From: Tetramitus jugosus | Lineage: Eukaryota > Protista > Heterolobosea | NCBI GenBank assembly: GCA_937625935.1 | Contig: OW569385.1 | Location: forward strand, 365,639 to 429,638 | DNA length: 64,000 bases | Direction of reading: 5' to 3' | Notes under the pieces: generated by a model | Databases searched by the model: none | What the model was told of the DNA's origin: nothing | The model's input: the letters and a program-made list of their open reading frames with translations, nothing else | Translations under genes and position numbers: made by a program | Part shown: one piece after another, positions 49,527 through 64,000 of the stretch | How positions within the stretch are numbered: the stretch's first letter is position 1 | Layout of the letters: each line of letters starts with the position of its first letter

Positions 49527-51521
49527 ATGAACATCATGGCAGAGAATCAGCAGAACGGAGAGAGAAACAACATTGGTCAGGACCCTGACTTTTTTGAAAT
49601 TATTCCGAGAGACATGTTTCATTTGATTATGCAGTTCATTCCAGCTTTTCCCTTTTATTTCATGTTGAGGTCTGTGTGTCGACAATGGCTCTCTGAATTT
49701 CAAGACCATATTTATGCAAATGTTGATCATTTGAGTTTGGTGGATGATGGAAAGCCAAAGTATTATTTTAGAGTGGACAATGGTGGTCAACCGTCATTGG
49801 TGCAATTTAAACCAATTGCCTATATTGGAACAAATGTTCAATTGACTGATCAGTCATTGGACGATTCTCTTAATATTGATAAAACAGGTCTGTTTGAGAA
49901 ATTGGCCAATTTGTTTCCCAATGTGAAGCGCCTTCGATTGGGTCTGAGTTCTCTAGAATTGCCACATTTTGAACAATGTGTGAAGACAATGTTGCCAAAG
50001 TTTACTCAACTTGAAACATTGGATATTTTAGGAACTGTGAATTATAGTTCTCGAAATTTATATCAAGCAGTGCAGGCTGGACTTAAACTGGAGATGATTG
50101 TATGTTCGTTATCAAGTTCGACTCGTAACCTAAACCTCATTGGTATTTCGTTTGATGATACTGATGATGCATTGGGGAGGTTAAAGAAGTTTTCGGACAA
50201 GGGAAGACGATCAATGGCAGAATCGATGTCTCTCCCTTCAACATTGCAAAACAATGCACCATCTGTGAATATTCAGAAATTATCTGTGTCTTACCTGTTC
50301 TTGGATCAAATGAGTGTTGGTTTCAACATCAATGATTGGGAGTCTATCCAGGAGATGTACTCGCACTTTGATGTGTCAGTGGTTGAGTATTATCAACATT
50401 CATCGATCCTACCAGTTGAATCCTATGTTGATTATTTAGATTACATATCAAAGAAGGAAGAAGTGGTATGCAATCAACATTCATTGAGTCTACCAGTTGA
50501 AGAATCCTATGTCGATTACTTAAATTATATGTCAAAGAAGGAACAAGTGGTATTGTCCCACATAGGACACATCATTCGAAGAAACTCTGATGAAATCATT
50601 CAAGCAGTGATTGATATAACGGTGCGAGAGTATTCGCTTTTCCAACCACTTTTCTCTCTTTCAACAGCAACAAAAGTGGTGTTTCAACTCGCACCACGAA
50701 CCATTTTGAAATCAATGTTTGTGTTACAGCATATATTCTGGCCGAGTACACTTAGGTTGTTGACAGACCCGAGTCGAATGAGATATCCTGAATTGGTATT
50801 CAACATTGACAGTACCGTGGGGAGTGGATACTTGCTGTCATCTCTTCTCCGGAGGCTAATCTCACGATGTTTAATTGTTCAAATGTTGGATGTGATCAAG
50901 ACGACCATAGACACTTACAAAGCTTCTATGGCCATTAATGGTGTGCAAAACTATCTTGTGTCTGCGATTACTTATCTTCCATTCTCTCCTCTCCGAACTG
51001 ACTTGATGAAGTACTTGTTGTCAAAGGATCCCGAGTTAATCACTCTCGGAGATTTGAATGGAATCATTCGTGATGATCAAAAAGATTGTCCAATTATTCA
51101 AATGCTCCTCTCTCAATCTTACTCAGAAGAGTGTTTGGAGGATATAAAGTTCTTGGTATCAGCAGGAGCTTCACTCACACAAGCAGATAAGAATGGAAAC
51201 AATGTTCTTCACTCAGCTTGTCGAATGGCTGATATCAATTTATTGGAGTATCTCGCTTCAGTTTGTCCTGAGAGCTTAATGTTCGAAAGAAATAATAAGG
51301 GCGAAACTCCAATCGAGCTAATATTTTCAGGAAACTCTCATGATGGCGATGTCCAATTATTGTTCCTTCGAAAAGTTGTCAATCTACCTTTCTTCAATGA
51401 TGAAACGCTAAAAGATTATCAAACATCGCTTAGTGCTTTACTGAAAATTGCCTCTGATAGTCCTCATCTCGAAACAATCCAGTTGCTCCTGAAGAATGGT
51501 TTAGATACCAATGTGGAATGA
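49527..51521 (+). CDS. F-box + LRR-like + ankyrin-repeat protein (possibly 3'-truncated)
   Basis: F-box IIPRDMFHLIMQFI..LRSVCRQW. LRR-like FPNVKRLRL. Ankyrin motifs DKNGNNVLHSAC and NNKGETPIE. The ORF stops in the middle of a repeat. Confidence 0.8.
   Translation: MNIMAENQQNGERNNIGQDPDFFEIIPRDMFHLIMQFIPAFPFYFMLRSVCRQWLSEFQDHIYANVDHLSLVDDGKPKYYFRVDNGGQPSLVQFKPIAYIGTNVQLTDQSLDDSLNIDKTGLFEKLANLFPNVKRLRLGLSSLELPHFEQCVKTMLPKFTQLETLDILGTVNYSSRNLYQAVQAGLKLEMIVCSLSSSTRNLNLIGISFDDTDDALGRLKKFSDKGRRSMAESMSLPSTLQNNAPSVNIQKLSVSYLFLDQMSVGFNINDWESIQEMYSHFDVSVVEYYQHSSILPVESYVDYLDYISKKEEVVCNQHSLSLPVEESYVDYLNYMSKKEQVVLSHIGHIIRRNSDEIIQAVIDITVREYSLFQPLFSLSTATKVVFQLAPRTILKSMFVLQHIFWPSTLRLLTDPSRMRYPELVFNIDSTVGSGYLLSSLLRRLISRCLIVQMLDVIKTTIDTYKASMAINGVQNYLVSAITYLPFSPLRTDLMKYLLSKDPELITLGDLNGIIRDDQKDCPIIQMLLSQSYSEECLEDIKFLVSAGASLTQADKNGNNVLHSACRMADINLLEYLASVCPESLMFERNNKGETPIELIFSGNSHDGDVQLLFLRKVVNLPFFNDETLKDYQTSLSALLKIASDSPHLETIQLLLKNGLDTNVE
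50392..50553 (+). repeat. in-frame ~81-bp tandem duplication inside the F-box gene
   Basis: QHSSILPVESYVDYLDYISKKEEVV versus QHSLSLPVEESYVDYLNYMSKKEQVV. Confidence 0.9.
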
Positions 51522-51898: not shown

Positions 51899-53939
51899 AT
51901 GTCCACTAACATGAAGAAACATATTATTACTGTGGTGATGACCATTATGGCTTCACTCTTGCTCTTCTCTGTCACTTCCATCAATGCACAGTGCATTGGT
52001 GTCGCTGGTTACACTTCTGCCGACTGCCCTCAAGGAACTCTTCCAAACTCCACAACCATTATTGGATACTTTTCTGGTGATGCCTTCTATGAAGCTGGAA
52101 CGAGTACTACCACTATTCCAGGTGCCAGTATCTCTGCAGGTGGTAAGATTGGCAATTACTTCCACTCACAAGGAGCTCTGGTCTTGGACTTTGGACCTTC
52201 TTTCGTAGATGATGATGGAATCAATACCATCTCCTTCTTTGCAAAGGTTGAATCTGTACATAACTGGACCGCGAATCCAACAGTCCCGGTGGCTACTTTC
52301 AAAGCAGATGCCGGAACTCGTAGCATCACTATTCAATTGGTCTCTGCGACCCCCAACATCAATTTAGTTGTCAGTTACATTTCTGCAGTCAATGCTCATT
52401 ACAGATGGTGATGCACTACAGAGAATATTTGCCATTGATGCAACTGGTCACTTGTTTGGAGGTGATTTTGCCTACATTGATGAAGTTTCCGTTTGGAGCA
52501 ACTCTGTGCTCGAAGTCGATGTTCCAACTATTGCGGGTATCTATGCGAATGGTTATTGCACAGGTTGGGAATCACAATATGGTGGTCCAGATCCAATTTT
52601 CGCTGCTTCATATACCAATGATGTTCTTACCATTGATGTCACTGTTCCAAAGAACTCATATCAAACAGTGCTGTACAGAATTGACAACACACCTAACCTG
52701 AGAGATGTGTGTTTGACAAATGCAGACAGTTTTACAACCAGTGCTGGTGCTAGCTGGGCTGCTGATCCAGAGCAAAAGTGTAGTCAAACATTCTCTTTGA
52801 ATCAAACTCTGACTCAAATATACACTGGTGCTGCACCAAATCAGTGGGTTGTCTCTCTGACACAAGGAGGTAGAACCATTGATCAGAGATTGGATATTTA
52901 TGTCACGTACTCTGTCATCAACCCCAATGCATGTTACACTGTGTCTTCAAAGGTTACCATTACTCTTCAGACATATCTGACTGCCCAAGCCTCCACAAAC
53001 TTTACCACTTTGGATGATCAAGCATCATTTTCGATTACCAACATGTTCATCAACCAAAATAATCAATTGGAAATTGATAGTGCTCTGGTAAGGAAGCTTC
53101 CAGGTATCTCCTTCAACAACATTCTCCTCACTAGGATGGCCAATAGCATTTCATATACTGGTTCAAGCACTCAGTGTACCTATCCAACTGGAAACTCTTG
53201 TGCTCTGACATTCACCAAGGACTGGACACTGTTGAACAGTGGCCAGAGAGGTGTTGGTGGAGATCACTCTTTGACCTTTAACAGAGTGAATGGTGGTACC
53301 CTCGAGATTGATTTCACAATGAGCTACACTGTTCCAGCCCAACCTGCTATTATCTCAGGAGACACACTCTCCTCTGTCATCACATTCTCTGCTCCTGATT
53401 CTATTTTCAGAACACAGGACACAATGCATTTGACAAACCAATTGGATGGAACACCTACGCTGCCAACAAACTATGATTTCACCTTTGTTGAAGGATACTT
53501 TTGCTGTGTTCGTTCTCCAAATGCGTTGCCAGTTTATGGGGTGAATGGAAATGGTTGTCAAAGTGCAATCCTTGGTAGAAACAACATTGTTGAGAAGACA
53601 CATTTGCTCCTTGGTTCCACTGGTCTAACTGTGACACAAAAGGTCATTCAAAGATCATATTCTCTGGACCTGGTTTTGAACAACATGATCACAATGAGCA
53701 GAAAACCTTTGCAAAATCCATTACTTCTCTTCTCCAATTTCACTGACACTACACTGGCTAGATCTGTCAAAATGGTAGCCGATATTGATTTGCGTAGAGC
53801 CACTGTGACTACCACAAGTATTCTACTGCTTCATGACGATAAAACTACCAAATCCAACAACAGTAGCAAGGACAAGATCAATGCTTTATTGATTGCTATT
53901 TTGTCCGTTGTCTGTTCTGTTGCATCAATGTGGCTCTGA
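51899..53939 (+). pseudogene. cell-surface beta-rich glycoprotein gene split by a frameshift near 52370-52410
   Basis: ORF 51899-52411 has the signal peptide. Overlapping ORF 52368-53939 has LamG-like IDEVSVW and a C-terminal hydrophobic anchor. No convincing intron was found. Confidence 0.6.
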
Positions 53940-54692: not shown

Positions 54693-55324
54693 TGTAGTTC
54701 ACGTTAAATTCATGTACGGTTCCACAAATCAACAAATTTTCTAAAATTCAACAAACAACAATAATTCTATAAATCCATGGCTACCCTCTTCAAGTACTTA
54801 TTCTATCCGGTTCCTATCCCCTTCTCTGTGTTTGGATTTTCAAGCCAGTCATTGAGATGCTAATAACGGGCTCTGTCTGCAATGGCAATTTTAACTGTAC
54901 CCAACACTGTTCATATAAAACATTTCGATGAGAGCTTATTGTCAATTCTACCAAATAATGAACAGATCAAGATTGAAATCTTATCTATACTCTCATTAGT
55001 TGTGAAAGGAAGAGAGAGTATTGCATATTGAACCTACAATGTGCATACAACGACCTCAGACACTTAATTTTATACCGTTACATAGTAGAATACGTTTATG
55101 TATTGAGTTTAAAGGCTTTTGGGAGTTGTATGATATTAATCAGTCATGTGATATCTCCATAGAAATGCAAACATTAGAAGAGTTCAATGGAGTAGTATGT
55201 GATTAGTCCAATGTATTTACTTTGATTTGTGCAATAGTGCTTGATCATACTCTCTTGATCAAATAAAAAAAATAGCTTGGACAAATTTAGAAAACAGTAA
55301 ACTATTTACAATGTGATGTTTAAT

Positions 55325-56335
55325 CTAAACGTATCTACAAACTAATTCAACATAATTCTGACCTGCTAAGTTATGTCTGTTGAATCTCCATTGTCCCAAA
55401 TTGTTATCCCAAACAACATAGTCCCCCAATTCAGCACCGTTATATCGCTTTAGGGCCACAGCATCTTTAATATTGTGTGCTCCAGTGTCACTAAAGAGAC
55501 AGTTGCCTACTCTCTCATCAGGAACAGGAACTGTTTTACCCATTTGGTCTTTTGCTTCTTTTCTTCGACGTGCCATGACATTTTCAGCTTCTTTTAATTT
55601 TCCCATTATTCTCCTTATTCCTTCATCAACATTCTTTTTCCAATTCCACTTCTGCACAGCTGTTGGTGGTGGATTTGTGAGTTGGAAAATACCATAACCA
55701 CCATCGTCTGACCTATCTGGCATACCTGTTTTATCAAACTGTCGATATTCATTTTCCTGCATTGCAATTGCCTGTGCAAACCAGATCGTCTCACCAATGT
55801 AGGAGCGTACTGTTTTGGGTGATGGTTGACTTCCACGAACTTCGAATCGTTTCACCATTATTTCTTCTAACGTTTTTATAGTTAAAGTGGCATCTCCACC
55901 AATTATGTTATCATCCCTAACAATAGGTATCCAATGCTTTCCAAGTGGAATAGTATCCTTACCAAGCACATAAGTAGCGCCCTCATATGTCACACTCAAC
56001 TCCCACGAAGCAGCATCAGCAGATGAAGACAAGTTACATAGTTGTAACTCTAGTTGAGGGAAAGTACCTTGTTCGCTTATATACACAATTTCAGGGAAGT
56101 TCTCTAGACGTAGTCCATCGACATGGACCACTAAGTCTTTGTCACAGACACGACAAATTTGACAACAACTATATAAGCTTGAGGCACAACACCATAATCC
56201 ATTCTCACAATCTTCAAATGGACTACAAGCAAATGATTTTTTGCCACAATTAACGCATTCAGCCTTACACTCTTTCTGATAAGTAGCGATGATAGTAATT
56301 GTAGACAATAAGAATAACGTTAGTAGTAGCTTCAT
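55325..56335 (-). CDS. secreted lysozyme/lytic-transglycosylase-like protein with a Cys-rich N-terminal module
   Basis: Signal peptide, Cys-rich module, then AIAMQE, GYGIFQL, WNWKKNVDEG and RYNG SLT-like motifs. Intronless. Confidence 0.75.
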   Translation of the reverse strand: MKLLLTLFLLSTITIIATYQKECKAECVNCGKKSFACSPFEDCENGLWCCASSLYSCCQICRVCDKDLVVHVDGLRLENFPEIVYISEQGTFPQLELQLCNLSSSADAASWELSVTYEGATYVLGKDTIPLGKHWIPIVRDDNIIGGDATLTIKTLEEIMVKRFEVRGSQPSPKTVRSYIGETIWFAQAIAMQENEYRQFDKTGMPDRSDDGGYGIFQLTNPPPTAVQKWNWKKNVDEGIRRIMGKLKEAENVMARRRKEAKDQMGKTVPVPDERVGNCLFSDTGAHNIKDAVALKRYNGAELGDYVVWDNNLGQWRFNRHNLAGQNYVELVCRYV

Positions 56336-56877
56336 GTCGTTTGATTGTTAAGATCTTGATGATGTAGATCAATGCTTAAAATATACCGCATAGAATTATT
56401 CCTGAATGTCTACCCGATTTGGGGAGCCGGTCAATTGTAAAAATGCATCACCACAAAATGAATTCATTGAAGATTGTTCACTATGACATCGATGATTCAG
56501 CAATCATCAAAGAGGCTGTATTCCAGCTACCTCTCAAGGAAGATGATATAATGAAAGTTTTCGATGTGAAGAGCTTCTATTTGCAGACCTCTAACCCTGA
56601 CATTCTGGAAGTTACTAATTCTATTGTCATTAATCAGTACGTACTTGATCCATGTAACTGTAATAGCAGTCATGACATGTCATATCTCCTCCAGCAAAGT
56701 AGTGTTTTGCACAACCAGTACATGCCATATTCTCGCAGTCAGTGCATTCAGAACTACAGTCTTCACATACTCAGCAGAAGTTCTGGTCTCATTGACAGCA
56801 TATATGTGTTATATCTACATTCATAGGAGCAGGGCAAGTACATGTTTCACAGTGTTTCATTTTTATTTTTTTGTCCA

Positions 56878-57380
56878 AAAACCCAAAATCGTGGAATTGC
56901 AAGTTTTTGATAGTATAAGTGACAATAACCGTTACGCAACAGAAGAGTTCCTAGTAGCTCTCAAACTGTTGGCTGGTTGTAATATTGCATCTCCGGAAGG
57001 GGCCAAAAACTGATGTATCCATTATTTCTCAAAGTACAGGGAACTCACTGTCGGGAACGTTGATTGGCAATGACAACTCACTCTTATCGGTCTATAAATG
57101 GTGTTTCTATCTTCTACAATGACACGGTCTGTAACCATCAGCTCCATATCACAAGGAAAGTTACTGTGCGATGTAACTGATATCTCCAACAGGAGCAAAA
57201 AGCTGCTGCTGAATTCAAAACTGGTCGAAAACCCAAAATCACGGAATTGCAAGTTTCTGATAGTCTCCAGAGTTGATAACGGGAATTTCCAACGAATAGT
57301 CTACAACGAAATTCGACATTGGCGAGCCATAGTTCATCTACTTTCTCCTTCGCCAAAAACTGATGTATGCATTTTCTCAA
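56878..57380 (+). repeat. diverged direct repeat with a 350-bp period inside a decayed gene (56419-57454)
   Basis: ACCCAAAATC..GGAATTGCAAGTTT.TGATAGT at 56881 and 57231. GCCAAAAACTGATGTAT at 57002 and 57352. Confidence 0.75.
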
Positions 57381-57561
57381 ACAAAACAGACTATTGCTAT
57401 AGCGTCAGAACAAATGACTGGTCATTGTGTTTTTCATACAGACAGCTTCTTTAGACATAGTAGTCAACGGTGGTAGGAACATGTGAATTTGAGAATGCAA
57501 AGTGAAATAAATTGGCAAGCATTATCACAAACAACACACAACAACAAAAGAATACACATTC

Positions 57562-57816
57562 ATGGTTGAAGCAATAGTCGGGGGAGGAAAGTCTACGGTA
57601 TGTCATAAGCTGGCTAAAGCAGACAATGCCTTTTGTGAACAACAGAAGCTTCAAGAATGGAATAAGGTATTGAAGAAGTTCTACAAGGAGAGCTCCAAGG
57701 ATAACTCTTATGATCTCCAGATGGTTGTTCACAAGTCATACATGAAGCATTACAACAAGTATCCACTACCAAAACCTCATGCTTGGCAATATCCTCATAT
57801 CAAAGCATTGGTGTGA
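57562..57816 (+). pseudogene. truncated deoxynucleoside-kinase-like fragment
   Basis: MVEAIVGGGKST P-loop (compare IEGNIGxGKST), then EW..VLKKFY...LQ. The ORF ends before the ERS motif. Confidence 0.55.
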
Positions 57817-58083
57817 TAATAGTATCTTCCTGTTTTGAGTTCGCCTTGTACTTTGGCTTCCTTGTCGTCCACCCATCTACCTGTTAATACTGGCACTCCA
57901 AGTAACTGGGCCATATCAACTTGAACATTGGCAAAGGTAGAGGAATTTTATCAGGCTCAATCACGAGAGTTTTCGCGCAGATGATCGCGATTGTTGTGTT
58001 TGGTAGAATTTACAGTGCAACAAGTGTATTTTTGGAATTTCCGTATTAAGGAAACTTTGACTGGGTTGCGGACGCACATCTCA

Positions 58084-58377
58084 TCAACAAAAGCTGAACG
58101 AAGCAATGAGATGAATCGTGTTGAATGTAACTATTGTATTAGGGTAACCAATGTTGATGTAACAGAACATCAAGAAGATGAGATTGTATTCATCATTGCT
58201 GTATACGTCCACATACGCAACGTCATGTGCTGATAGTTGTACTTCATCATAAGCATCACGATTATGCCAACGCCAGAATACTCTTAATGTAAAGACTCCT
58301 TGAGTATCGAACGTATAAATGTTTGTTGTTTCCGACTCTCTGAGCTTGACTGGTTCCTCTATACCATACTTTGTCAA
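58084..58377 (-). CDS. hypothetical virus-like ORF or fragment
   Basis: 97 aa with a TTG start that overlaps the upstream stop by 4 nt. Confidence 0.3.
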   Translation of the reverse strand: MTKYGIEEPVKLRESETTNIYTFDTQGVFTLRVFWRWHNRDAYDEVQLSAHDVAYVDVYSNDEYNLIFLMFCYINIGYPNTIVTFNTIHLIASFSFC

Positions 58378-58952
58378 TTCAATAGTGATGTATTCTCTTG
58401 CTTGTCTGGTAGTACACTAGCTCCAGTATAACTCTTGTTTACTACTGTAATACCATCATGCTTAGAATAGATCTCTGTTGACTCTTCACATCTGGCAACT
58501 ATACCACTAGGACTGATCACTCTCATGTTTCCATCTAATAGTTGTATACCAATGTCATGAGGAGTCAAGTTAATGTACTGCATTGATCTTGGCTTATATA
58601 GTTCATGTCTCACGTCTTCATCCAATCCATACTCTACTAGACTTGACCATTCTTTAGCTAGAACAACATTTGCCCAACCTTGACAATCAAATCCAGTATC
58701 ATCACATGATGATTCAAAGTAGAAATAGAGACCAGACTGTAATTTACCTACTACATTCCATGATTCCTCGTCTTTGGTTCCATTGTGGAAAAAATATACT
58801 TCTGTAATAGTATCTGGATCGAAAGAGAAACTTACTGCATCAACAACCCATTTAACCTCCAGATCATCTGGTTCGTATTCAAACCCATAGAAATCAAAGT
58901 CATTCCTGAAGTTATCAATGATGTTTGGAGGTAGAGTGATAATGTCTTTCAT
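58374..58952 (-). CDS. virus/phage-like protein, apparently two fused domains
   Basis: W.VVGKL..G.YFYFESSCDDTGFDCQG block followed by INLTPHDI...PSGIVAR...DGITV..LP. I recall both from phage and giant-virus hypothetical proteins. Confidence 0.6.
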   Translation of the reverse strand: MKDIITLPPNIIDNFRNDFDFYGFEYEPDDLEVKWVVDAVSFSFDPDTITEVYFFHNGTKDEESWNVVGKLQSGLYFYFESSCDDTGFDCQGWANVVLAKEWSSLVEYGLDEDVRHELYKPRSMQYINLTPHDIGIQLLDGNMRVISPSGIVARCEESTEIYSKHDGITVVNKSYTGASVLPDKQENTSLLN

Positions 58953-58976
58953 TTGTTTTTTTGGGTTGTGTTTTAT

Positions 58977-59153
58977 TTAGACTTGCTCTTCTTTATCGTG
59001 TGATTCTTCTCTTGTACTAACAAGCTCTACTCTGATGATGAATGTTCTGGAAACTTCGCCTTGCACAAACTTTTCTACTTGAGCCATTGTCTGAAACTCA
59101 TAACAACCAAATTCACCCAAACCAGCATAAATCAGAGACACTTCGTATGGCAT
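58977..59153 (-). CDS. small 58-aa ORF (not in the supplied track), co-oriented with the virus-like cluster
   Basis: MPYEVSLIYAGLGEFGCYEFQTMAQVEKFVQGEVSRTFIIRVELVSTREESHDKEEQV*. A 24-nt A-rich spacer separates it from the next ATG. Confidence 0.45.
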   Translation of the reverse strand: MPYEVSLIYAGLGEFGCYEFQTMAQVEKFVQGEVSRTFIIRVELVSTREESHDKEEQV

Positions 59154-59218
59154 GTTCTTGTTTCGTTTTGTTTACTTATGATTACAGATCTTACATGCAC
59201 ACTTATCACAGGGTGGAG

Positions 59219-59280
59219 TTTGGGTTTGGGTTTGGGGACTCATTGCTTACATATACCAGATCAGGGGTTGGGTTTGGGTT
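59219..59280 (+). repeat. interstitial telomeric repeats in the same orientation as the terminal telomere
   Basis: (TTTGGG)3 at 59219-59236 and GGGGTTGGGTTTGGGTT at 59264-59280. Confidence 0.9.
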
Positions 59281-59680
59281 ATCACGTAAGCCATGGCCCT
59301 TTTGACTCTGGAGCAAACAACAACTCAATCTCTCGATGGAGATCCTTTGTCATTTGTCCTCTAGATCTATGTTTAAGCTTTCATTCCGTTCATTGTTCAT
59401 GATTTATGAATTCAGATCCCAACCATCGTTTGAACAGGGTGAATGTTCAACAAAACTAAAAAGAAAAACAAACAAAAAGATCATTGGGTATGTTTTTATT
59501 CAACAAAATGTTTTTGATAGTCACTCAATAACTTTCTTCCCTTGACTGCGAGCGAACGCTTCTCAAACCCTTGTCGAGACTGTGGCACAAGTGGATTGGT
59601 ATGTGAGTTTTTGTCTTCATTTCACACACGTTATTCACACACAGTTCGTATGAAAAATTATAGGCGAAACTCAAAAGAGT

Positions 59681-59770
59681 GAAACGTGAACGTGTGGCCA
59701 AAAAGTGGTCAGACATGAGAAACGTGAACGTGTGACCAAAAGGAGGTCAAACAAGAGAAACGTGAACGTT
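59681..59770 (+). repeat. 38-bp tandem repeat, about 2.3 copies
   Basis: GAAACGTGAACGT at 59681, 59719 and 59757. Each full unit contains TG(G/A)CC-N7-GGTCA. Confidence 0.9.
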
Positions 59771-59906
59771 TAGCAAAGAAAGTACTTTCACACACTAGTA
59801 AACAAAATCTTTCAACAAAAACAAACAACAACACAAGCAAATAAAAAATTGTATGTACATTTGTTGTTTCTTCAACCAACACGCTAACACAACATCCAAT
59901 AGAGTC

Positions 59907-60818
59907 ATGGAAAATTCAACTACTCTACCTTGTATCCTTTCTCCATCACTTGAGTCTGTACTTCCACACACCAACGGTACAATAAAAGCTTGCGTTATTA
60001 TCACAAGGGACGAGATAGGGCTCCACATCCATGATGATGTAGAAAATCCTGTGCTGGTACTCCAAGCAAAACTGGATCAAGAAAAACAGGACAACTCACA
60101 ACTTCAAAACAAGTTGAAGGAAGCAAAAGACACAATCCTAAAGAAGAATCAAGAAATTTCCTCACTTCAAGAACAATGCGAAAGACTCAGTGCTCAAGTG
60201 GGTCCAGATGATGCAACTAAAAAAACCCTAGCATGGTTACAGAAAGCCCTCTTCAAACTCGACACCAATGGAGTTGTGACCGAAACCAGTACCCAGGTTA
60301 AAAATTTGGCTTCATTACCGGACGAAGAGTTTGAATCTTTGACCAAGACCATTGATCATGTTGCGTGTATGCGCTACGCCATACGCAAGAAGCAAACAAG
60401 GAAAGAAGGACAAGAACTATTCAAGGCCATCAAGGCAAGAGATCCTGTGGGTTCCGAAATCAATTCCTTCTCAAGGGAGATTCGGATCGGAGAATTCTTA
60501 GTGAATCTCACCTATGCCTACAATAAGGAATGTTCAGCTATGGAGATGTCATCCATATTGAGAAACAACACCATTTTGGTCCAGGAGTTAGAAGATCTGG
60601 AAAGGCTCCCCTTTTGGATTATCTCCAAATATAAACCAGCCACCATGGATACCTACATTAAACAAGACCTTTGGACTATAGATGGAGTAGCAGCGATGAT
60701 GTGTGATATTTTACGCAGAATTCGAGTTACAGCAACCGAATCCCCAAAGAACAACAAGAGGACTGGACCTACTGGTTCATCGTCAAATGGGACAAGAAAA
60801 AAACAACGCAACAACTGA
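59907..60818 (+). CDS. element ORF1: coiled-coil protein with a basic NLS-like tail
   Basis: Heptad region LQAKLDQEKQDNSQLQNKLKEAK... and C-terminal RKKQR. An alternative start lies at 59853. Confidence 0.75.
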   Translation: MENSTTLPCILSPSLESVLPHTNGTIKACVIITRDEIGLHIHDDVENPVLVLQAKLDQEKQDNSQLQNKLKEAKDTILKKNQEISSLQEQCERLSAQVGPDDATKKTLAWLQKALFKLDTNGVVTETSTQVKNLASLPDEEFESLTKTIDHVACMRYAIRKKQTRKEGQELFKAIKARDPVGSEINSFSREIRIGEFLVNLTYAYNKECSAMEMSSILRNNTILVQELEDLERLPFWIISKYKPATMDTYIKQDLWTIDGVAAMMCDILRRIRVTATESPKNNKRTGPTGSSSNGTRKKQRNN

Positions 60819-60847
60819 GTGGTAATTTAACTTGCAAACAACCAACA

Positions 60848-63193
60848 ATGACAACCATAGAGGTTGAATACACTAGCTATCTGAATAAAATAGAAGCTTC
60901 ACCTGTTCATCCTCTGGTTGCAAGTGGATTCATATCTATTGATGAGTCAGTGGAGAGCCAATGTTTGGACGGAACAGCCATGGAGGATATTGATATTGAG
61001 TTGGCCACACTACTTGGAGGTAGAGCTAAGCAGTTAAAACAAAAAAGAATAACAGATGAAGTGATAGTCGAACCAATCAAGAGAATGGAGAAGCATAAGG
61101 AGGAACAGGACTTCTGCAGGCAAGTCACTGTAAACCTAGTAGAAACTCAATCATTGGACAGGCAGATGGAAGAGTTGATTAATATTATGCAACTCTCTCA
61201 AGCTCCTGGTACCAAGCTTGTTCAAGATTATGCTTGGAGGAGTTGGATGGGGTGGTTAGAACAACAAAAGCAAACTCATGAAGAGTTGAAGACGATTGAC
61301 CATTACAACCCCGGTAAGCATGTAGTTGGGCTCTATCTGCTACACATGAGGGTGCTCTATCAGTACAGTCATAGTACTGTGGTGAATTGTTTCTGGAATC
61401 AGCTGTGCGCTGTCCTCAAAGAGGAAAGAGGAATTGATTTGAAGAAGGAGATGGGAGAGTTTATCAAGAAGTTGTTCCGAGCCTTAATCAGGAAGTATGG
61501 AAACTCAAAGTTTAAGGTTTTCCCACTGTTGAATCACGATTTAGCAAGATGGCAACGAGCCCTATCCAAGAAGGACAATAGAGAGCCTCAAGTGAGATTG
61601 AGAGCAATTATCATGTTTGGCCGGCATGTTGGTTGGAGAGGGGATACTTTGTCCTATATGAAGCTGAAAGATATGACATTTACCTCTGTGAAGAGTGATG
61701 AATATACCTACTTGGTAGTTCAAAATGTTGGATACAAGAACAAGGGTATAGGTGGTCAGGAGCTTCGCAACACAGTGTATGGATCAAGTGATTTCAATGA
61801 GTGTCCCGTTTTTGCTCTATTATGGTATCTATTTCACATGAGAGGTGTGTTCGAGGCTGAATCACTCCAAGATATGATTGATCGGAACAAATTTACTTTG
61901 AAAACTGGTGCTCAAGAAGAATATCTATTCACACAGGCAACAACGGAGCAACCCATGACTTCTAAAGATATGTCGAACCTGATGAAAACAAGTTCTGCTG
62001 AGATACTCAAATGTCGATACACAATGAGATCACTAAGGAGTGGCCATATTTGCCAAGCATTGCTCACAAGCATTTTACGGTACGGTATTATAAAAGATAG
62101 CATAAGACAAGCAATTAAGAGACATGTCGGGTGGAGCAATGATGAATCAATTGATGCCTATGAGCGAATGTCAATTTTTTGCTCACAAAATGTTGCAAGC
62201 TTGCAAGATTTACAGCAACATACAGGGGCTCAAAATATTGTGAAAGCTTTCTGGCAGATGGATTCAGATCAACAATCAACACCCACCACACCAGTACGAA
62301 CAACGTTGAGGGAGATACGAAGATCCAGCTCCCACCCAAAAAAATCACCCTCCTCTGTTAAAAAGTTTGTTTCGTTTCGTCAAGTAAAGAAGAGAATTTT
62401 AGAACTGAGGCCAAACCTCAGCAAAGCATGTCGTGAAGAGGACGAGAAAACCGTAGGAAAAAATCACCAAACAACATGGTCTGTCTATCATCAGAAGTAT
62501 ATTAAGCAGTGGGCAGAGAATTCTAACGAATGCCAAGAAGTGCTGAATGGAAATCAAGAATATATCAAAGGCAGTACCGACCAGAGGTCATCTATTCTAC
62601 TGAATGTTGGGAAGAGTATGTTCGTTAAACTTGCTGTTGGTCCTAAACGAGATGAATACATTAACAAGGTGTTCTATGAAGACTATGCTTCAAAGAAAAA
62701 CCCAAATGAAAGTGGGAGCGCAGCGAAACGTTTTCTTCCTAGAGGGATGAAAAGAAAACTTGATTTAACGTGGGAAAAGGATGTTGAACAGCCCGAACTC
62801 AAATTTCATACTCCAAACAGGATTACAATACCAGAAACAACCAACGACAACCTAGATTCCTTTTCATTGTCTCAACTCGTTACTCAAGAGTTTGATGAAA
62901 TGGACACCGCAACAATGAATAGTATGATTGAGGATTATTGGAACAGAAATGAAGACAATCAACATGGTATTTCTTTTGCTTACTCATCAACCAACACAAG
63001 TCTGATGGATAATGATCCAAGTTTACTCTGTCCGAATGTGTTCAATCAAGAAACTGAAGGAATAGTGACGCAAGACACGAACAATCAGATAGAAGAAACC
63101 AAAACGAAAGACACAAACCAGCCAAGAGGAGATGAAGAAAATATAAAGAAAGAGAGGGAGTATTTGTTGTCCTTAGACTTTGAATCATTGTGA
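60848..63193 (+). CDS. tyrosine recombinase (phage-integrase fold; DIRS/Crypton-like)
   Basis: VGWR(264)GDTL, K297/K299, CPVFAL..Y, YLF, R394-S-L-R397-SG, VGW(429) and Y438. The W-to-Y spacing of 9 matches Cre W315/Y324. Confidence 0.85.
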   Translation: MTTIEVEYTSYLNKIEASPVHPLVASGFISIDESVESQCLDGTAMEDIDIELATLLGGRAKQLKQKRITDEVIVEPIKRMEKHKEEQDFCRQVTVNLVETQSLDRQMEELINIMQLSQAPGTKLVQDYAWRSWMGWLEQQKQTHEELKTIDHYNPGKHVVGLYLLHMRVLYQYSHSTVVNCFWNQLCAVLKEERGIDLKKEMGEFIKKLFRALIRKYGNSKFKVFPLLNHDLARWQRALSKKDNREPQVRLRAIIMFGRHVGWRGDTLSYMKLKDMTFTSVKSDEYTYLVVQNVGYKNKGIGGQELRNTVYGSSDFNECPVFALLWYLFHMRGVFEAESLQDMIDRNKFTLKTGAQEEYLFTQATTEQPMTSKDMSNLMKTSSAEILKCRYTMRSLRSGHICQALLTSILRYGIIKDSIRQAIKRHVGWSNDESIDAYERMSIFCSQNVASLQDLQQHTGAQNIVKAFWQMDSDQQSTPTTPVRTTLREIRRSSSHPKKSPSSVKKFVSFRQVKKRILELRPNLSKACREEDEKTVGKNHQTTWSVYHQKYIKQWAENSNECQEVLNGNQEYIKGSTDQRSSILLNVGKSMFVKLAVGPKRDEYINKVFYEDYASKKNPNESGSAAKRFLPRGMKRKLDLTWEKDVEQPELKFHTPNRITIPETTNDNLDSFSLSQLVTQEFDEMDTATMNSMIEDYWNRNEDNQHGISFAYSSTNTSLMDNDPSLLCPNVFNQETEGIVTQDTNNQIEETKTKDTNQPRGDEENIKKEREYLLSLDFESL

Positions 63194-63300
63194 GAAGGAC
63201 AACCAAACATTTTATGCATAAATATACATCACAATAAGATCATGAATCATTTTTCCGAAACAATTTTTGAACGAACACAAGTCACTCTTCAATTTTCCGA

Positions 63301-64000
63301 TTTGGGTTTGGGTTTGGGTTTGGGTTTGGGTTTGGGTTTGGGTTTGGGTTTGGGTTTGGGTTTGGGTTTGGGTTTGGGTTTGGGTTTGGGTTTGGGTTTG
63401 GGTTTGGGTTTGGGTTTGGGTTTGGGTTTGGGTTTGGGTTTGGGTTTGGGTTTGGGTTTGGGTTTGGGTTTGGGTTTGGGTTTGGGTTTGGGTTTGGGTT
63501 TGGGTTTGGGTTTGGGTTTGGGTTTGGGTTTGGGTTTGGGTTTGGGTTTGGGTTTGGGTTTGGGTTTGGGTTTGGGTTTGGGTTTGGGTTTGGGTTTGGG
63601 TTTGGGTTTGGGTTTGGGTTTGGGTTTGGGTTTGGGTTTGGGTTTGGGTTTGGGTTTGGGTTTGGGTTTGGGTTTGGGTTTGGGTTTGGGTTTGGGTTTG
63701 GGTTTGGGTTTGGGTTTGGGTTTGGGTTTGGGTTTGGGTTTGGGTTTGGGTTTGGGTTTGGGTTTGGGTTTGGGTTTGGGTTTGGGTTTGGGTTTGGGTT
63801 TGGGTTTGGGTTTGGGTTTGGGTTTGGGTTTGGGTTTGGGTTTGGGTTTGGGTTTGGGTTTGGGTTTGGGTTTGGGTTTGGGTTTGGGTTTGGGTTTGGG
63901 TTTGGGTTTGGGTTTGGGTTTGGGTTTGGGTTTGGGTTTGGGTTTGGGTTTGGGTTTGGGTTTGGGTTTGGGTTTGGGTTGGGTTTGGGTTTGGGTTTGG
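63301..64000 (+). repeat. telomere (TTTGGG)n, about 116 units to the window end
   Basis: Near-perfect hexamer array with one TTGGG variant at 63979. Confidence 0.98.

Follow-up and report, generated by a model that had tools for sequence, protein, structure and literature searches.

In this study, we analysed a stretch of 64,000 nucleotides from Tetramitus jugosus contig OW569385.1 (the window), the end of which carries a real multicopy, telomere-associated tyrosine recombinase (YR) element of an unannotated heterolobosean family. The copy in the window holds two open reading frames, ORF1 and the predicted YR gene ORF2, and lies directly before a terminal tract of TTTGGG repeats (Table 1). 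The contig data support a multicopy, mobile element, the left end of which lies within TTTGGG in the same phase at several loci. We lean towards the reading that it is a 4-kb element with a Cre-like YR, which would insert into TTTGGG as a DNA circle, at a fixed phase and likely with no reverse transcriptase (RT). That a YR directs the element to telomeres, a view which this reading shares with that of a retroelement like TATE, is probable. Somewhat more tentatively, we propose a minimal autonomous eukaryotic DNA transposon with the telomere repeat as the YR attachment site and with neither RT nor capsid. Its cycle of insertion, erosion and healing would build heterolobosean subtelomeres, and it would form the telomere-targeting branch of an unrecognised Naegleria/Willaertia YR family.

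Copies of the element and their left ends

Contigs from four public sequencing runs were aligned to positions 55000-63330 of the window; one of them, X6, is an independent groundwater run. In run X1, summed contig depth (not a copy number) was 45 over the flank at 58058-59169 vs 150-342 in 14 of the 15 element bins (3.3-7.6x flank), and near-identical contigs reached 3.0-3.8x flank depth. The same step was found in run X3, with the element at 4.5-15.2x flank. A single-depth X1 contig (57785-59297) crossed the left junction with 0 differences. Among the loose ends listed, three contigs in X1 and three in X3 left the window at 59264, and one in X6 left it at 59265. The unaligned parts of the X1 and X6 left-end contigs were at least 255 letters long, and the blended left-flank consensuses, with an agreement of 0.73 in X1 and 0.65 in X3, both ended in GGGTTT. 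Since the unique X1 contig ends at 59297 and the assembly word size is, as we take it, 31 letters, the copies share 59268-59298 and thus have the same phase. These results indicate that several loci share one phase, with a unique flank, a few repeats, GGG-TT and then the element. When translated, some loose ends matched by eye the diverged homologs P0094 (X1 and X3) and P0001 (X6), and therefore subfamilies coexist.

The many copies, and the left ends that share a phase but differ in their flanks, speak for mobility directed to telomeres and against a host gene. The initial annotation of the window had raised a domesticated host recombinase that remodels chromosome ends. The ORFs are indeed intact, with host-like GC and GC3, and the family is present in Naegleria and Willaertia, as might be expected of such a gene. 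However, the element is multicopy with sharp ends, diverged subfamilies occur in one run, copies are truncated in the middle of genes, and Willaertia has at least five divergent paralogs, which is the pattern of a transposon and not of an ortholog. Domestication is therefore very improbable, and that suggestion was dropped.

The copies could also be a subtelomeric repeat spread by ectopic recombination of the host and telomerase healing, in which the YR would be a passenger from an untargeted Crypton-like transposon. The Y' elements of yeast are an example of subtelomeric repeats spread in this way. The right ends vary, the relic tracts are layered, a shared phase could come from a single ancestral junction, and the named relatives of ORF2 lie on long contigs that are not necessarily telomeric. 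However, the flanks differ directly to the left of only 2-4 repeats, which would leave little homology; tracts of this size would be short for homologous recombination. Moreover, the catalytic residues are kept across the ORF2 family, and telomere repeats also adjoin two of five close homologs, at 56% identity. We consider spreading by the host improbable. A chimeric assembly, in which a repeat was joined to a telomere, would agree with the absence of a contig spanning the right junction among those listed. It is scarcely credible given the X1 contig across the left junction and the other contigs that join the element to TTTGGG repeats.

The predicted recombinase ORF2 and the companion ORF1

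The initial annotation had described a YR and a coiled-coil ORF1, and both assignments were supported, that of the YR by its fold. ORF2 alone gave no match in Pfam, PDB sequences, PHROG, NCBIfam or a phage search, and the profile of its family alignment gave nothing useful against PDB sequences. Its AlphaFold model was confident over aa ~120-445, and the best Foldseek match of the model was Cre (E 1.4e-8). Compared with Cre 1pvp_A (VIA), model aa 109-456 gave a Z of 21.6 and an rmsd of 3.6 over 294 aligned residues. Thus ORF2 is like Cre (PDB 1pvp, 3crx) in its core-binding and catalytic fold, but it shares only 12% identity, has Arg at the His position of the HxxR motif and additional regions at both termini; loxP-like inverted repeats were not found. 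In a wide fold search, Cre (Z 21.1) and other recombinases stood above the protelomerases TelA (6.6), TelK (6.3) and ResT (5.3). On this fold rank a protelomerase was set aside as unlikely; the chromosome end here is a simple repeat tract.

The putative catalytic residues were examined in 34 aligned family members, with roles assigned by motif and not by residue-level superposition. R264 was found in 33 of 34 rows, K299 in all 34, R397 in 27 of 29 non-gap rows, W/H429 in 27 of 28 and Y438 in all 26. By fold and motif, ORF2 is predicted to be a YR, although no profile matched it directly. Its residues ~510-613 form a candidate second DNA-binding module.

Among the 34 aligned members, Phage_integrase was matched by six (best 7.7e-6), NDC10_II by two and XerA by three. 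The nearest Atlas clusters of ORF2 were NDC10_II, ALOG/DIRS, DUF3435 and DUF3504, with scores of 0.96-0.98 that do not discriminate between kinds of eukaryotic YR. The Starship captain domain DUF3435 was matched by none of the 34 at E 0.1 and appeared as one Atlas cluster (rank 25, score 0.96). No Pfam match to a helicase, to DUF3504 or to GCR1_C, the C-terminal domain of CryptonF, was found in 34 + 61 proteins.

ORF2 has six close homologs, five at 52-62% identity and one at 35%, and a profile search returned 84 representatives, 58 of them at E 1e-10 or better. In a tree restricted to family members (30 of 34 rows; four with fewer than 250 core residues were dropped), ORF2 and five close homologs formed a 100/100 clade. 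Seven of 20 relatives looked up had names: five from Willaertia magna and one each from N. lovaniensis and N. gruberi, all annotated as 'hypothetical' or 'predicted' proteins. Their accessions are KAL9657423.1, KAL9654698.1, KAL9656588.1, KAL9647284.1, KAL9646611.1, KAG2381543.1 and EFC43670.1. No loci of relatives were found in metagenome_contigs, viral_contigs or prokaryote genomes. An 18-nt left-end pattern was also searched for, and its three metagenome loci were all chance matches. One relative, N. gruberi EFC43670.1 (P0025), has a Chromo match (E 4.7e-10), by eye at the C-terminus of the protein; the chromodomain points to a different branch of the family that may target heterochromatin.

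Both ORFs are 'intronless' in the sense that they are continuous and colinear with their homologs. Among the variants listed (40 of 436), 15 fell in ORFs, with eight synonymous, seven missense and 0 nonsense changes, a small and pre-selected set. One oligo-dT RNA run contained 0.19 of the words, which is no evidence of expression.

The coiled coil of ORF1 was seen as weak Pfam coiled-coil matches at aa ~60-135 and as a helix at 48-98, the only confident part of a model with a mean pLDDT of 47. ORF1 has three homologs, at 60-96% identity, and no PHROG match. A portal protein was rejected, with a best Atlas score of 0.77, below lead level. As a guess, ORF1 could act as an accessory oligomeric factor for excision or targeting.

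Proposed movement and comparison with known elements

In the cycle that we propose, the YR would recombine the two ends of the element across a 2-nt TT core (59279-59280) and release a circle. The left flank ends in GGG-TT and the right flank starts with TTT-GGG, and removal of the element would restore a normal repeat. The circle would then re-enter a telomere, where only insertions in the innermost repeats would persist and outer ones would erode. Copies would be shortened at their distal side by terminal erosion and telomerase healing, and ends healed in this way would in turn be targeted, giving the layered relics at 59211-59280.

Several points weigh against this cycle. The initial annotation had proposed the telomere repeat as the attachment site and had named copies with identical boundaries within TTTGGG as support. 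This was found for the left end, where contigs leave the window at 59264 and 59265, at several loci and at a shared phase. The right boundary at 63300, however, was seen in the window copy only, and other copies run into telomere repeats at 63210 (X1 and X3) and 61445 (X3). Depth falls rightwards, from ~7x at the left to 1.5x in the last bin, part of which was skipped, and summed contig depth is no measure of copy number. No circle junction was present among the joints listed (15 of 19, plus a table of telomere joints; 24 of 190 loose ends were listed), and no convincing inverted repeat surrounds the proposed TT core. X1 and X3 come from a single study, which may be the one from which the window itself derives, and for the flanks there are only blended consensuses of 30 letters. 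The seven named relatives of ORF2 lie on contigs of 29-591 kb; telomere targeting may be restricted to ORF2's own subfamily. Finally, at the His position of HxxR, 28 of 30 non-gap rows carry Arg and two carry His. Arg/His swaps at this position occur in active YRs.

Truncated, telomere-capped (healed) copies of the element exist. GGG(G)-TT-GGG is the first sequence of both the truncation joints and the left tract at 59264; 63300, in contrast, leads directly into TTT-GGG. This TTT-first start weakly hints that 63300 is a recombination junction; GGG-TT-GGG also occurs once inside the terminal tract (63976), and for P0003 and P0004 it is inferred from the peptide only. The longest contigs of the close homologs were 4,033 (P0001), 4,256 (P0002), 4,643 (P0004), 4,400 (P0005) and 6,370 bp (P0003), so that the 4,033-4,643 bp of four of the five indirectly support a unit of ~4 kb (4,020 bp here). 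P0003 and P0004, two of these five, read through WVWV, which is in-frame TTTGGG, and then into other sequence. These contig sizes and WVWV runs are indirect data, a further point against the cycle. Contigs of X4 and X6 that stop aligning at 63224/63225 were not used, as the side of their unaligned letters is ambiguous.

Two side observations concern these ends. The newly capped ends (59264-59278 and the joints at 63210 and 61445) seem to start with GGG(G)-TT-GGG, with two T's in the first repeat, which in this lineage may mark ends made de novo by telomerase. In addition, a low-depth X3 contig (57.8 vs ~2,000 for the flank) joins 59236 to 63182, placing telomere repeats directly before the last ORF2 codons; this joint is possibly an artefact.

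We next consider the RT, which the initial annotation had reported as missing. In agreement with this, neither strand of the unit showed an RT. An RT Pfam match was absent from all 95 proteins scanned (34 + 61; 92 of the YR family and three ORF1 homologs), and no longer fused form with an RT occurred among 1,178 candidates, which is a weak test. None of the contig joints or loose ends listed read into an RT. This copy thus has no RT, and the whole element would likewise be RT-less if 63300 is its natural right end.

The element could be a TATE/VIPER-like YR retroelement that targets telomere repeats, whose distal RT ORF was lost by terminal deletion and telomerase healing. TATE consists of a gag-like ORF, a YR and an ORF3 with RT and RNase H, in this order, and its insertions into telomeric hexamers have a fixed phase (PMC6681497). 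The order of ORF1 and the YR is that of the first two ORFs of TATE/VIPER, which speaks against our proposal. As in TATE, a YR element stands at a fixed phase in telomeric hexamers, here at its left end, with a domain-less ORF1 before the YR. The gag-like ORFs of VIPER have weak SMC_N-type matches, akin to the coiled-coil matches of ORF1. Telomere-capped truncations of the element exist, and N. gruberi was reported to have DIRS-like fragments, whose status is uncertain (PMC3266345). In contrast to TATE, this copy has neither an ORF3 with RT and RNase H nor split direct repeats, which are 57-381 bp long in TATE/VIPER (PMC6681497), and its target is GGGTTT and not GGGTTA. Lacking the RT and the split repeats, this copy does not qualify as TATE/VIPER. 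As to an RT lost by truncation, no joint or loose end listed reads into one, four of five close homologs lie on contigs of 4.0-4.6 kb, and the junction at 63300 does not have the G-first start of the truncation joints. There is also no long split direct repeat in the unit, although a truncated copy could lack one, and none of the seven named relatives is from a kinetoplastid. We regard a truncated retroelement as unlikely.

Insertion into telomeres without an RT is known from viruses. In the nimaviruses (majaniviruses, pemoniviruses and Nimav-1_LVa), a YR is associated with insertion into host telomere repeats, with no RT (PMC10871703, PMC7016691). The working principle is the same as that proposed here, but nimaviruses are crustacean viruses with genomes of 278-580 kb, with arm-binding and C2H2 domains in the majanivirus YR, whereas this element has 4 kb, two genes and no viral genes. 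The phaeovirus integrase, likewise a eukaryotic YR, has a proposed 2-nt core homology, CC vs the putative TT here, but belongs to a giant virus with non-telomeric targets and conserved inverted repeats around the core (PMC13236599). Another reading, with these precedents, is an endogenous DNA virus, Polinton-like or giant, of which the unit would be the terminal integration module and whose remainder is lost or elsewhere. Weak fold matches to a phaeovirus protein (E 1.1e-3) were found among many integrases, and the decayed neighbours, a deoxynucleoside kinase (dNK) and a phrog_21731-like gene, are virus-like. These neighbours, however, lie to the left of the copy boundary in single-depth DNA, the unit has no capsid, polymerase or ATPase gene, and ORF1 and ORF2 have no relative in viral_contigs, phages or PHROGs. 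A viral origin of this kind seems quite improbable.

The element, as we propose it, works like the Cryptons, in which the YR is the sole recognisable enzyme, terminal inverted repeats and long repeats are absent, and a circular intermediate has been proposed (PMC3212892). As weak leads, the nearest Atlas cluster of ORF2 was NDC10_II (0.98) and two of 34 relatives match NDC10_II. The element differs from Cryptons in having two ORFs, in sharing ~2 nt at its ends vs Crypton direct repeats of 4-6 bp, and in its telomere target, and Heterolobosea are absent from the Crypton host table (PMC3212892). Assignment as a Crypton is not established by the end repeats or by phylogeny.

The initial annotation knew of no such element in this lineage. 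In agreement, neither a small RT-less telomere YR element nor the ORF2 family in Heterolobosea was found in the literature searched, a scope that excludes subscription journals, Repbase and supplements; Repbase or supplements could hold a Naegleria Crypton-like entry. A preprint on heterolobosean transposable elements has 0 mentions of Crypton, DIRS, recombinase or telomer. The nimaviruses had been overlooked, however, and are the closest precedent for the mechanism (PMC10871703). Hence the principle of YR-linked telomere insertion without an RT is known, and what would be new is a minimal two-gene DNA element that uses it, in Heterolobosea.

YR targeting of telomeres has been inferred in TATE and in the ~300 kb nimaviruses, and the accessible parts of these papers report no direct test (PMC6681497, PMC10871703, PMC7016691). 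With two genes, 4 kb and a definable 2-nt core, the present element makes such targeting directly testable in a plasmid assay, and a compact integrase for a gene-free target made of repeats could be derived from it. A YR family of Naegleria and Willaertia that had gone unannotated is brought to light. The element also bears on the proposed origin of YR retroelements from a Crypton-like DNA element and an RT, as ORF1-YR without an RT would be either a precursor form of these retroelements or their decay product.

Layout of the window end and neighbouring genes

The two intact ORFs are separated by 29 nt, and the telomere starts 107 nt after the ORF2 stop, exactly as first described. The terminal TTTGGG tract comprises 116.8 units up to the window end; TTTGGG is also the telomere repeat of the heterolobosean N. 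gruberi (PMC3622300). Apart from this tract, telomeric 12-mers with at most one mismatch start only at 59219, 59225 and 59267 (chance expectation 0.49 per window), and there are none in 1-59200. The unit had been described as bounded on the left by relic TTTGGG repeats from 59219. The relics are real and in telomere orientation, but they are split into a tract at 59219-59236 and another at 59264-59280, with 26-27 nt between them, and by the contig evidence the repeated unit begins after the second, at ~59281. The older tract is probably an earlier healed end.

TT is the only terminal sequence common to both proposed ends, and the boundary shifts if whole telomere units are counted as repeat. 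The 20 families of direct repeats and 25 inverted pairs listed for the unit included no long terminal repeat, no Rfam match was obtained, and the 64-kb window has no second copy of the element. The tandem array upstream of ORF1, a candidate promoter or protein-binding array, lacks 77 nt in one copy (contig joint 59698-59776, X1 and X3). The 8-mer of the right subterminal region has three further occurrences in the window.

Table 1. Features at the telomeric end of the window (positions in the window; aa, amino acids)
Feature	Position	Strand	Remarks
Older relic telomere tract	59211..59237	+	Degenerate start and three TTTGGG; outside the repeated unit; in single-depth X1 contig 57785-59297
26-nt non-telomeric spacer between relic tracts	59238..59263	.	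Locus-specific flank; other contigs diverge left of 59264/59265
Left target tract	59264..59280	+	~2.5 telomere repeats, end GGG-TT; loose ends at 59264 and 59265
Element body, 4,020 nt	59281..63300	+	Other copies support the left end, and the right end is provisional; step in depth at bin 59170
Three 38-nt tandem repeats, perfect 13-nt core	59671..59780	+	Upstream of ORF1
ORF1, 321 aa (303 from second ATG, 59907)	59853..60818	+	Coiled coil, helical region, basic tail
ORF2, predicted 781-aa YR	60848..63193	+	Open reading frame, fold, motif
Predicted Cre-like core-binding and catalytic domains, ORF2 aa 109-456	61172..62215	+	R264, K299, R394 (His position), R397, W429, Y438; roles by motif
Conserved helical C-terminal domain, ORF2 aa ~510-613	62375..62686	+	pLDDT 64-92; profile matches 12 proteins
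Right subterminal region, 8-nt direct repeat at 63251 and 63293	63251..63300	+	Weak candidate binding sites
Terminal (TTTGGG)n tract, at least 700 nt	63301..64000	+	G-rich strand to the window end; TTT directly after the element

Most neighbouring genes had been called decayed. This holds for the dNK fragment at 57562-57816 and the frame-broken phrog_21731-like gene at 58084-58952, but long open frames lie further left, at 55325-56335 and 49527-51521. The region 57562-58976 as a whole carries virus-like decayed genes, the kinase and phrog_21731/30542-like sequence; both X1 and X3 show raised depth across the kinase region, which is thus likely repeated. Next to it, an imperfect direct duplication with ~350-nt spacing (56878-57389) contains pairs of 37 and 38 nt, and variants of it occur at contig joints.

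The frame at 55325-56335 (- strand) is intact and has a low GC3 (0.30). Its 336-aa product, which begins like a signal peptide and contains a Cys-rich stretch, has no Pfam or PHROG match. Its C-terminal part presumably resembles bacterial lysozyme/transglycosylase, and lateral acquisition of this gene is possible. We also take the window to hold genes of the RGS, MHYT-RGS and BBS2 types, which fit a heterolobosean host. At 51899-53939 (+ strand), overlapping frames of 170 and 515 aa, the long part of which has no Pfam match, look like one gene for a secreted or surface protein split by a frameshift or an intron.

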